A program made the position numbers and the translations under genes. Below the pieces are notes generated by a model. That model was not told where the DNA came from and made no database searches. It was given only the letters and a program-made list of their open reading frames with translations. DNA of 64,000 nt from Promethearchaeota archaeon (GTDB lineage Archaea; Asgardarchaeota; Lokiarchaeia; Sigyniarchaeales; SOKP01), in assembly GCA_048937405.1 (NCBI GenBank), contig JBHLNF010000013.1, forward strand, positions 19,332-83,331, written 5' to 3'. Below are positions 16,093 to 18,909 of this stretch, one piece after another (the stretch's first letter is position 1; each line of letters starts with the position of its first letter).

Positions 16093-16782
16093 TTATAAAA
16101 TGTTAATTCCAAAAATACTTACACCCCATATCCATAACGCGAATCCTTGAATAAAGCAGAAGATCATTATTACAAAAGCAATTGGAGGCCAAGATAAGAA
16201 TTTGGAAACTTTCTGTAATGTTCCTATAGAAAATTTAGCCATGAGACCTACTATAACGGTCACAATAATAAAGATTATTACAAGTATCCATTTTGGGTTT
16301 ATTACACCAGCAATCACTTGAACAGCTCCATCAGGAACAAGTAAAGCTATGATAAACACTGTTGCAGTACCGGCTATAAGCCCTAATATGCTTGAAAGTG
16401 GTAAATCTGAGATTGGTTTAAAAAAAATAGCTATTCCAATAACTATTAAGAATATACTTGTGAAATGATTTGCAGCATTCTCAGTCACATCTCTATATTG
16501 AAAACTAGGAGGTATATTTAAGATGAGACTTACCGCTCCAGACCATATAACAAAGATTCCAAGAATCAATCCTATATATGATAATCCTCTTAGAAATTTT
16601 GTAATATCAAATTTTTCTTCTTCGGTTTTTCTTTTTAAAAACGATCCTCTACGTTTTCTTTCATACCCCAACCATGTAATCGCCATTAAACCACTTAAAA
16701 TCATCATTATTGCCCCTGATTCAGCAACCCAATTAAAAAATCCTTTAATTACATCCCAATAGTCGAAAAGCAATTTAATCAA
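16093..16782 (-). CDS. Multi-pass membrane protein, unknown function
   Basis: About 6 hydrophobic segments. Confidence 0.75.
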   Translation of the reverse strand: MIKLLFDYWDVIKGFFNWVAESGAIMMILSGLMAITWLGYERKRRGSFLKRKTEEEKFDITKFLRGLSYIGLILGIFVIWSGAVSLILNIPPSFQYRDVTENAANHFTSIFLIVIGIAIFFKPISDLPLSSILGLIAGTATVFIIALLVPDGAVQVIAGVINPKWILVIIFIIVTVIVGLMAKFSIGTLQKVSKFLSWPPIAFVIMIFCFIQGFALWIWGVSIFGINIL

Positions 16783-16924
16783 CTCTAATGAAAATTTTAA
16801 ATTAAATAACAGTTAGGTTAGGCTTTTAAAAATCTATTGAAAACTAAGTTTAAAATTATAATAATAATCTATTTATTACCTTACTTGTTTTTTTATCTAA
16901 AAAACACTATAAAGTATCTAAACT

Positions 16925-17098
16925 ATGTCTGAATGGAAAAATAAATTAGAAAATGATACTAATGATTCCTGTAATAGTGAAATATCTTGTACTGGTTGAG
17001 CCATTATTGATGGTGTCATAAACGGGATAAGAAGTCTTAAAAAACGATATAAAAAAAGAAAGCAATTAAAAATTAAATCAAAAGCTCTCAAGGAATAG
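16925..17098 (+). CDS. Candidate 57-aa selenoprotein (in-frame UGA, CxxU)
   Basis: MSEWKNKLENDTNDSCNSEISCTG-TGA(16997)-AIIDGVINGIRSLKKRYKKRKQLKIKSKALKE-TAG; flanks conserved with the next unit. Confidence 0.55.
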
Positions 17099-17103
17099 AT
17101 TGT

Positions 17104-17148
17104 TAAATTTTAGAATCTAAACCGATAAATTCCGCAAAAATTTCGAGA
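17104..17148. promoter_or_regulatory. Conserved two-hairpin 3' element, copy 1
   Basis: TAAATT-TTAG-AATCTA ... AAATTC-CGCAA-AAATTT-C-GAGA; homologous to 17471-17513 at the same distance from the stop codon. Confidence 0.6.
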
Positions 17149-17309
17149 ACTTAACATTATGACTTATTATTTTTTATTGACAATAAATAAAAGTCTTAAA
17201 AGTTTTATAGAAAATTAGATTATATAATTGAATTTTAATTATTTATAATCACTACTCTTTTATTTATAATTTAACAGATAAAAATCAGATACTATAAGGA
17301 TATAAAATC

Positions 17310-17465
17310 ATGAAAGATGAAATTGACTATTTAGATCTTGGATTTGATGATGAGTGTTACAGTACAAGTTGAGATATGATGAGAATGTGGTATAAAAGAA
17401 TACAAAAACTACAAAAGATACATAATGAAAAAATAGAAAATGATAAAGAAATCTCAAAGAATTAA
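17310..17465 (+). CDS. Candidate 51-aa selenoprotein (in-frame UGA, CxxxxU)
   Basis: MKDEIDYLDLGFDDECYSTS-TGA(17370)-DMMRMWYKRIQKLQKIHNEKIENDKEISKN-TAA; AAGGA upstream. Confidence 0.5.
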
Positions 17466-17470
17466 ATCAA

Positions 17471-17513
17471 TAAATCTTAGGATTTAATTTTGAGTTCTGC
17501 AAGAACTCAGAGA
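17471..17513. promoter_or_regulatory. Conserved two-hairpin 3' element, copy 2
   Basis: TAAATC-TTAG-GATTTA ... GAGTTC-TGCAA-GAACTC-A-GAGA; compensatory changes relative to copy 1. Confidence 0.6.
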
Positions 17514-17532
17514 TAAGAATAATTTTATATTT

Positions 17533-18909
17533 TTAACTTTTTTTTGGTTCTCCAGGACCTTCTCCTACTTTTCGATAAATAAATCCTTTTTCTTGCAGTA
17601 ATTTTTTGTTAAAGATATTTCTACCATCGATGATAATAGGTGTCCTTACTCTTTTTTTTAAATCATCCAAATCAATATTGTAATATTCACTATGATTTGT
17701 TGCAAAGATAAGTACATCAGCATTAGAAACAGCTTTATTAAAATCATTTGTAAGTTCTGTAAGTCTGTAATCTCTCTCATTTACATATGGATCATGCGCA
17801 ATATAGATGATATTATGAGAATGATATCGTCCTTGTAGTACTTTTACAATATTTTCGGTGGGGGTATTACGTGTATCATCAGTGTCTGCTTTATAAGAAA
17901 CACCTAAAAGAACAATTTTAATATTATCTACTAATTTATGAACCTCTCTGAATACATCCTCCATTAATTCAACCATATGATATGGCATATAGTCATTTAA
18001 ATTTCTCGAGTTTGGAATAAGCTTTATTTTCTCTTTGTTTTTCTTTTCTGTATATTTATCATAACCGTATAATAATAACCAGGGATCCTTCGTTAGACAA
18101 TGTCCTCCTACACCACTACCAGGATAATGCATCATCCTATCATGTCTGTGATTTATAAATTCAACAATATCATATATATTTCTATCGAAATCTTCACATA
18201 GTAAAGCCATTTCGTTTGCAAATGCTATATTAACATCTCGATATGAATTTTCAATACATTTAGTTAGTTCTGCAGTAAGGGTATCTGTTACTTGAAGCTC
18301 TTTCTTAACAACCTTTCCGTATAAGAATTTTGCTCTTTCATTGGCTTCCTTACAACCACCTCCAATGACTCTAGGAAAATCGGTGATATATTCCAATAAT
18401 TTTCCTGGCATAACCCGTTCAAAAGAAAATACAAGATAAAAATCTTGCCCTCTTTTGAGTCCACTACCCTCTTCTAAGATTGTTTGTACTATATTATTTG
18501 TAGTACCTGGAGCTACTGTGGATTCAATAATGATTGTAACTCCTTTTTTTAAGTTTTTTGAGATTTTACGAGAAACTTCAATTAATGATTCATACCTAGG
18601 GATTTTATTTTCATCAACAGGGGTTTGAACATCTATTAAAATATAATCAGCTTTATTAACAAGTTTGTAATTATCAGTTACTTTAAATTTCCCATTTTTA
18701 ATAACTCTAGAAATTAATTCATCTAAACCAGGTTCATCTCCTTCAAAAGGATTCTTACCTTGGTTGAGCCAATCGATTTTCCATCCTGATCTTTGTGATC
18801 TTCGCTGAATTCCAGTTACATAAAATTCATCAACATCAGCAAGTAATGCTGCCATAGGAATACCAACATATCCCATCCCTATGACAACGATATTAGTGGT
18901 CATTATCAA
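17533..18909 (-). CDS. Nucleotide-sugar dehydrogenase (UDP-ManNAc/GlcNAc dehydrogenase, WecC/WbpA family)
   Basis: GMGYVG, ESTVAPGTT, ENSYRDVNIAFANE, PGSGVGGHCL, DDTRNTP. Confidence 0.92.
   Translation of the reverse strand: MIMTTNIVVIGMGYVGIPMAALLADVDEFYVTGIQRRSQRSGWKIDWLNQGKNPFEGDEPGLDELISRVIKNGKFKVTDNYKLVNKADYILIDVQTPVDENKIPRYESLIEVSRKISKNLKKGVTIIIESTVAPGTTNNIVQTILEEGSGLKRGQDFYLVFSFERVMPGKLLEYITDFPRVIGGGCKEANERAKFLYGKVVKKELQVTDTLTAELTKCIENSYRDVNIAFANEMALLCEDFDRNIYDIVEFINHRHDRMMHYPGSGVGGHCLTKDPWLLLYGYDKYTEKKNKEKIKLIPNSRNLNDYMPYHMVELMEDVFREVHKLVDNIKIVLLGVSYKADTDDTRNTPTENIVKVLQGRYHSHNIIYIAHDPYVNERDYRLTELTNDFNKAVSNADVLIFATNHSEYYNIDLDDLKKRVRTPIIIDGRNIFNKKLLQEKGFIYRKVGEGPGEPKKS

Follow-up and report, generated by a model that had tools for sequence, protein, structure and literature searches.

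Among the described selenoprotein genes of Lokiarchaeia are VhuD/FrhD, HdrA, VhuU/FrhA, Prx-like and SelD, which carry an in-frame UGA for selenocysteine (Sec) and a Sec insertion sequence (SECIS) of their own type, the lokiSECIS (Mariotti 2016 PMC4989117; Huang 2024 PMC11227280). In described lokiSECIS, an AUGA before the main stem and a GA or AA after it are invariant (PMC4989117, PMC11227280). An AUGA/GA kink-turn core is common to every SECIS described from Asgard archaea and eukaryotes. Accounts of the Asgard selenoproteome list only SelD, FrhA/VhuU, HdrA, FrhD/VhuD, Prx-like, AhpF-N-like and DsbA-like proteins, seven families that were all found through homology to known proteins, and these accounts describe neither a small orphan family nor a SECIS devoid of AUGA (PMC11227280, PMC13188914). 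Here we analyse a stretch of 64,000 nucleotides from a Promethearchaeota archaeon of the Lokiarchaeia (GenBank assembly GCA_048937405.1, contig JBHLNF010000013.1, positions 19,332 to 83,331 of the forward strand), henceforth the window, whose coordinates are used below unless another contig is named. Its spacer at 16.8-17.5 kb carries two plus-strand micro-genes, units 1 and 2, each with one in-frame TGA and a Y-shaped RNA element at its 3' end. We propose, with a probability of roughly 70%, that they are two paralogous micro-selenoprotein genes whose recoding is directed by this element.

The two units share several traits with the lokiSECIS genes. They occur in the same hosts, with the same Sec machinery; they have an in-frame UGA and homologues with Cys; an RNA structure lies directly after, or overlaps, the 3' end of the coding sequence; and two adjacent UGA genes can share a single structure, as HdrA and VhuD share their SECIS. 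Similar, though not identical, is a hairpin, which has 9-10 bp and an A-rich loop of 11-12 nt that ends in AG. Unlike the lokiSECIS genes, the units fall outside the known families, match no Pfam entry and encode only 43-58 residues. Their RNA, which lacks the AUGA/GA features, branches as a three-way junction, in which a closing stem that hardly varies carries, besides the main hairpin, a second conserved one. The SECIS of euryarchaea (Methanococcus type; PMC9622424, PMC11881835) resembles the element of the units in its archaeal position in the 3' untranslated region (UTR) and in requiring no kink-turn core, but the latter is AU-rich and branched, and lacks the GAA/A asymmetric bulge and the GC-rich stems; indeed, a GAA_A bulge between GC-rich stems was absent from both alignments of the element (A3 and A4).

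Two micro-genes of the same design

Unit 1 (16925..17098, plus strand) comprises 57 codons and a TAG stop at 17096-17098, with the in-frame UGA, a predicted Sec codon, at codon 25 (16997..16999). Its read-through sequence is MSEWKNKLENDTNDSCNSEISCTG-U-AIIDGVINGIRSLKKRYKKRKQLKIKSKALKE, a predicted selenoprotein with a C-T-G-U motif. Unit 2 (17310..17465, plus strand) has 51 codons and a TAA stop at 17463-17465, with its UGA, again a predicted Sec codon, at codon 21 (17370..17372); its predicted product, MKDEIDYLDLGFDDECYSTS-U-DMMRMWYKRIQKLQKIHNEKIENDKEISKN, contains C-Y-S-T-S-U, and M-W-Y-(R/K)-R comes after the UGA. Most unit 2 orthologues stop at codon 45. In both units the N-terminal half is acidic and the C-terminal half basic, rich in Lys and Arg.

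A preliminary description of this DNA, made from the sequence alone, had claimed that this gap holds two units of the same design, each with a TGA shortly after a Cys, an acidic N-terminal and a basic C-terminal half, and a true TAG or TAA stop associated with a homologous 3' element. All these features were found again, the distal stop lying at an equal place inside each element. The whole 700-bp spacer is 66-80% identical in more than 20 species of the genus, and the paired-unit pattern is therefore far beyond chance.

Coding constraint extends past the UGA

In alignments of the genus orthologues the TGA column is preserved, while the surrounding codons vary synonymously, and indels within the units comprise whole codons. 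The ratio of nonsynonymous to synonymous substitution rates (dN/dS) is 0.29 for unit 1 and 0.11 for unit 2 before the TGA, and 0.40 and 0.32, respectively, over the whole segment after it. When only the 16-18 codons after the TGA were considered, frame 0 gave a dN/dS of 0.26 without any stop in 21 sequences of unit 1, and of 0.22, again without stops, in 22 sequences of unit 2. The same codons read in frames +1 and +2 gave values of 0.71-0.89 with 37-50 stops for unit 1, and of 1.07-1.18 with 27-31 stops for unit 2. The constraint typical of coding sequence thus continues past the UGA in the same frame, as the preliminary description would have it.

Profile searches were carried out across 153 species genomes of the order. 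The unit 1 family was found in 103 of them, distributed among 10 genera of one family, and every one of the 103 matches contains exactly one in-frame TGA, without any Cys form among them. Within the genus the TGA of unit 1 is kept in 21 of 21 orthologues, and the Gly codon ahead of it appears as GGT, GGC, GGA or GGG. The unit 2 family, present in 64 of the 153 genomes and in four genera, has TGA at the corresponding site in 60 genomes and TGT (Cys) in the other four, which lack any stop there. The TGT forms belong to two lineages with uninterrupted open reading frames (ORFs), one of them represented by genome G022, together with the database protein P0012, and the other by the clade G077/G090/G091. 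In homologues of either unit the site never holds TAA or TAG. The UGA/Cys alignment anticipated for homologues was borne out, with the Cys alternative found in unit 2.

A large protein collection holds 21 homologues of unit 2, either unnamed or called "hypothetical". Nineteen of these 21 entries carry W at the UGA, the exceptions being the Cys form P0012 and a fragment, P0023, called from the Met after the UGA; this W presumably is a mistranslation, from short contigs called with genetic code 4. The public unit 2 calls P0003-P0022 are unnamed proteins of 43-51 residues, and the proteins of the relatives are in all 43-58 residues long.

In a profile-profile comparison the two families align end to end with their Sec columns matched (probability 62%, E 7.5e-5). 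From this alignment, and because their 3' elements are clearly homologous, we consider units 1 and 2 to be paralogues. Low-stringency blastn and tblastn searches of the host genome with both units retrieved no additional copies. The relative G006 contains three copies of unit 2 on its contig C1, at positions 190236, 191271 and 2131886; two of these share a second locus, with about 1 kb between them, showing that the family can duplicate and move.

A three-way junction overlaps the distal stop of each unit

The 3' element has 68-69 nt, begins inside the last codons and overlaps the distal stop. It starts 13-16 nt before the stop in the window, within 0-15 nt of the end of the ORF in 18 other loci, and some 80-90 nt downstream of the UGA. 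Element 1 (17083..17151, plus strand) scores 67.6 bits and element 2 (17449..17516, plus strand) 55.1 bits with the covariance model R1, and each is supported by covariation, on alignments A3 and A4, respectively. Three stems form the junction. The closing stem P1, AUCUC/GAGAU, is almost invariant; it pairs 17085-17089 with 17145-17149 in element 1 and 17451-17455 with 17510-17514 in element 2. P2 is a hairpin of 10 bp with a 12-nt loop of the form nnAAA[A/U]nnnUAG, whose AAA (positions 4-6) and final AG do not vary among the 44 aligned copies. In element 1, P2 pairs 17092-17101 with 17114-17123 around a loop at 17102-17113, and in element 2 it pairs 17459-17468 with 17481-17490 around the 12-nt loop AAUAAAUCUUAG at 17469-17480. 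P3 (17127-17144 in element 1 and 17492-17508 in element 2, all on the plus strand) is a 6-bp hairpin with a loop such as CGCAA or CGYGAA. The flanks of P2 are CAA(G/A) on the 5' side and UAN or a single nucleotide on the 3' side. The element is AU-rich, with a GC fraction of 0.25-0.30, and is followed by T-runs.

Pairing is kept in 94.8% and 92.6% of the cells of alignments A3 and A4, with double-sided changes in 6 and 8 pairs of the two element alignments, and the covariation score was reached by none of 500 shuffles. As a control, sliding the partners by 1-3 columns left at most 60% of the cells paired. The minimum free energy (MFE) fold of element 2 is the junction itself, with a z score of -4.28 and none of 200 shuffles folding as well; likewise, the MFE fold of the unit 1 element of a relative reproduces the junction, with a z of -6.2.

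R1 was also applied to 18 further loci, drawn from eight further genera, and in each of them it placed the element immediately behind the UGA ORF. In two genera, g21 and g13 (loci L072, L073, L080, L087 and L088), the two ORFs are separated by only about 20-30 nt and a single element follows the second one. In some genera the two units probably form one bicistronic unit. A 30-bit R1 match elsewhere in the host, at L037:1501-1566 on the minus strand (C17:176289-176354), is probably due to chance, or a decayed copy. It follows a 348-residue coiled-coil ORF without TGA and has UAAUAAAAACUAGGAUUU and AAAUUCCGCAAGGAAAUC in common with the element. A scan of the AT-rich genome with a structure-only descriptor returned 618 matches, which amount to noise.

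Selenocysteine machinery of the host

The host assembly, of 4.47 Mb and 29% GC, contains genes or candidate genes for all the components of Sec insertion that the preliminary description had asked for. SepSecS was identified with 474 bits, whereas a PSTK-like gene (154 bits) and an EFsec-like gene (232 bits) scored below the curated cut-offs. The SelD gene (L004:1342-2373, minus strand, host contig C18) itself is interrupted by one in-frame TGA. In its 3' UTR lies a structure with an AUGA that differs from the lokiSECIS of 9 bp and 11 nt; this agrees with the separate SelD type already published.

A whole-genome search with the Rfam tRNA-Sec model returned only ordinary tRNAs of 71-74 nt. By searching beside the EFsec-like and SepSecS genes, we found a tRNA-Sec candidate at L096:16460-16566 (C7:230459-230565, plus strand), approximately 90 nt upstream of SepSecS. 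It has a UCA anticodon in the anticodon loop CUUCAAA, and its variable arm is long. The T-loop is enlarged by an insert of about 22 nt, because of which the candidate scores only 23.9 bits with Rfam RF01852 and is missed by standard scans. The same combination, a tRNA-Sec gene beside SepSecS with an insert in its T-loop, has been published for Lokiarchaeota (PMC4989117). ARAGORN detected only 14 tRNA genes in the 4.47 Mb, even with introns allowed, and most tRNAs of this host are probably interrupted at non-canonical positions.

Four canonical lokiSECIS were found in the host: VhuD-like genes precede three of them, and the fourth comes after another ORF that contains in-frame TGAs. They are laid out as AUGA, 9 bp, an 11-nt loop AAAAAnnnnAG, 9 bp, and GA or AA. 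Compared with them, the stem and loop of P2 (10 bp and 12 nt versus 9 bp and 11 nt) are alike but not identical. The genetic code is standard, because TGA closes 8 of the 41 long ORFs in the window.

The conservation of the UGA, the constraint downstream of it, the alternation of UGA with Cys and the machinery of the host together support the recoding that had been proposed for this locus, and we consider it very likely that the UGA of both units is decoded as Sec. Each gene would be transcribed from its own archaeal promoter; the ribosome would read the UGA at codon 25 or 21 as Sec by means of the tRNA-Sec, EFsec, PSTK, SepSecS and SelD of the host; and the Y-shaped RNA element, at or just before the distal stop, would direct this recoding. 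Sec insertion, the role of the element as a SECIS and the redox function of the products are all inferred here from sequence comparisons.

Role of the 3' element

If the UGA is indeed decoded as Sec, then the Y-shaped element probably acts as its SECIS; that it constitutes a new class of SECIS, working without the AUGA/GA kink-turn core in cells whose other selenoprotein mRNAs do have it, is a claim to which we give even odds. Several observations weigh against these proposals. Neither the AUGA before the main stem nor the GA or AA after it appears in alignments A2-A4. The window's own copy behind unit 1 is weak, with an MFE z of -0.13, no better than shuffles, two mismatches in P2 and a short P3; the TGA of unit 1 is kept nonetheless, and, in the case of co-transcription, the intact copy downstream of unit 2 may serve unit 1 as well. 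With 150 of 8636 first-look candidates scored, R1 detected the element nowhere else in the host and, specifically, not behind its known selenoprotein genes. The Cys lineage of G022 and P0012 keeps a well-formed element, although its scores, 33-39 bits, are the lowest of all. Finally, almost every genome of the order has the Sec machinery, as judged by SepSecS in 145 of the 153, which leaves no contrast with lineages lacking Sec.

The clade G077/G090/G091, in which unit 2 has Cys, shows the opposite behaviour to G022: between the stop and the neighbouring gene there are only 30-65 nt, without the junction structure, and unit 1 in the same loci retains both its TGA and its element. As G022 and P0012 retain the element, its loss together with the UGA rests on one evolutionary event.

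Two other structures were evaluated and rejected. A kink-turn or k-junction reading of the junction is contradicted by the candidate GA, which is not conserved in the unit 2 copies, and by the first pairs of P2 and P3, which are Watson-Crick and covary. A relaxed AUGA..GA hairpin, detected in a scan of 16850-17560 and spanning the UGA of unit 2, is rich in G-U pairs; the common orthologue sequence of the spacer alignment shows mismatches to it and has no trailing GA.

The absence of the AUGA/GA core, the persistence of the element in the Cys lineage G022/P0012, the T-runs that follow it and the failure to find it behind the known selenoprotein genes of the host among the candidates scored would all suit an alternative in which Sec is inserted through some other signal, while the element would act for this gene family in termination, in mRNA stability or, by binding a protein, in regulation. 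We regard this as unlikely. No other conserved structure exists near the UGA, where the sole AUGA..GA hairpin is the orthologue-mismatched one rejected above; one copy serves both ORFs in g21 and g13; and the clade G077/G090/G091 has lost the element behind its Cys gene, while the adjacent UGA gene keeps its own copy. Persistence after conversion to Cys has, moreover, a precedent, as fossil SECIS are known behind recent Cys converts in eukaryotes. Last, a 10-bp stem with an A-rich loop ending in AG is like the apex of the lokiSECIS (PMC4989117).

Identity of the residue at the UGA

The two-sided coding constraint demonstrates read-through, and not the identity of the residue inserted. Programmed read-through by a standard tRNA, a near-cognate for Trp, Cys or Arg, perhaps stimulated by the 3' structure, would then yield ordinary micro-proteins, and would also agree with a 3' element that is not a canonical SECIS. 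This nevertheless seems quite improbable, since the sole sense codon at the site is TGT, reached in two lineages, and never TGG or CGA; a working Trp or Arg should have fixed a sense codon somewhere in more than 100 lineages. Besides, a Cys precedes the site by 2-4 residues, an arrangement shared with CxxU redox motifs, and the host uses Sec and has several other UGA-Sec genes.

It is very unlikely that the UGA is a true stop, delimiting acidic peptides of 20-24 residues, with the downstream half either re-initiated or untranslated. Unit 2 does possess a conserved Met two codons past its UGA, the one from which P0023 was called, and a restart there had been put forward as a fallback in the preliminary description. 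However, unit 1 is without any ATG, GTG or TTG downstream of its UGA, and yet purifying selection has kept its downstream half conserved in 103 genomes; because of this lack of a start codon, restart cannot explain the conserved half and was set aside for unit 1. In addition, the two halves are always in one frame, the Cys forms fuse them naturally, and TGA was never swapped for TAA or TAG.

A noncoding region, with a small RNA pair (for instance, C/D-box-like) or antisense genes and accidental open frames, can be dismissed. It could be suggested by Rfam C/D-box matches of 11-17 bits at 17343-17397, which fall short of their cut-offs (38-45), and by minus-strand ORFs of 57 and 49 codons. It is countered by third-position variation and a dN/dS of 0.11-0.40 confined to the proposed frame, by minus-strand frames that are closed in 18 or more of the 21-22 orthologues, by the lack of a D box and by the absence of any Rfam family at gathering score over the window. 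The C/D-box candidate at 17343-17397 itself was rejected, since Asp codons GAUGAUGA, the UUGA of the Sec codon and a second AUGAUGA mimic its C, D' and C' boxes; at permissive E-values, Rfam returned only sub-threshold C/D-box, miRNA and other chance matches.

Putative promoters and genomic context

Two conserved promoter-like boxes precede the units. That of unit 1, TTGTTTTTTTATCTAAAAAAC (16885..16905, plus strand), is conserved in 20 or more aligned orthologous spacers and holds the TATA-like TTTATCTA at 16892-16899, followed by an A-run; its position about 30 nt before the ATG suggests a near-leaderless mRNA. The box of unit 2, TTAATTATTTATAATCACTAC (17236..17256, plus strand), is a conserved alignment block some 60 nt before the ATG, with the TATA-like TTTATAAT at 17242-17249, and the 5' UTR of the mRNA is predicted to measure around 40 nt. 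Judging from this conservation, we infer that both boxes act as promoters. Unit 2 also shows a Shine-Dalgarno-like AAGGAT at 17296-17301, and in its orthologues the ATG is preceded, at a distance of 8-12 nt, by GGAGG or GGTGA. The motif ACTATAA, which the preliminary description had placed 19 nt before each ATG, is present at 16906 and 17291 and is not conserved in orthologues. We rejected it (16906-16912; 17291) as a TATA box, both for this reason and because it would start transcription downstream of the ATG.

The units are flanked by two minus-strand ORFs, one for a 229-residue membrane protein (16093-16782) and the other for a member of the UDP-glucose/GDP-mannose dehydrogenase family (17533-18909). 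The dehydrogenase gene, convergent with the units, lies next to them in four genera; in g12 and in G150 it does not. Across genera, the gene neighbourhood provided no consistent functional lead.

Character and significance of the proteins

A Pfam search with both units retrieved no credible family. The predicted Sec site lies 2-4 residues after a Cys, as C-x-x-U in unit 1 and C-x4-U in unit 2. On one side of this Cys/Sec pair is an acidic segment and on the other an amphipathic helix rich in Lys and Arg, which points to a minimal scaffold with a selenylsulfide as its redox centre. The scaffold is possibly hairpin-like, and the basic tail might dock the protein to a partner, a nucleic acid or a membrane surface. 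Among the selenoproteins of eukaryotes and bacteria, SelW, SelH, SelT, SelM and Rdx are thioredoxin-fold CxxU proteins of about 85 residues or longer with a beta-alpha-beta arrangement, and SelH joins the CxxU motif with a basic region. Unit 1 is like them in its C-x-x-U and, presumably, in the selenylsulfide couple; in contrast, the units reach only half their size and have an apparently helical, charged character, and in unit 2 the pair is spaced as C-x4-U.

We found no publication on, or database name for, the protein of either unit, and a new orphan family of micro-selenoproteins with a non-canonical SECIS is, as judged from the comparative evidence, probable. Such proteins escape both homology surveys and ORF callers. 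If they are real, most genomes within one Lokiarchaeial family would carry two lineage-specific protein families, and their products of 43-58 residues would be among the smallest natural selenoproteins, pushing down the lower size limit of this class and representing an Asgard-specific redox module. We know of no SBP2 found in Asgard archaea. Should the element prove to be a SECIS that naturally dispenses with the AUGA/GA core, the SECIS reader of Lokiarchaeia would recognise the A-rich apical loop, perhaps together with the second hairpin, and not a kink-turn, which would bear on how SECIS are recognised in Asgard archaea and on the origin of the eukaryotic SECIS.

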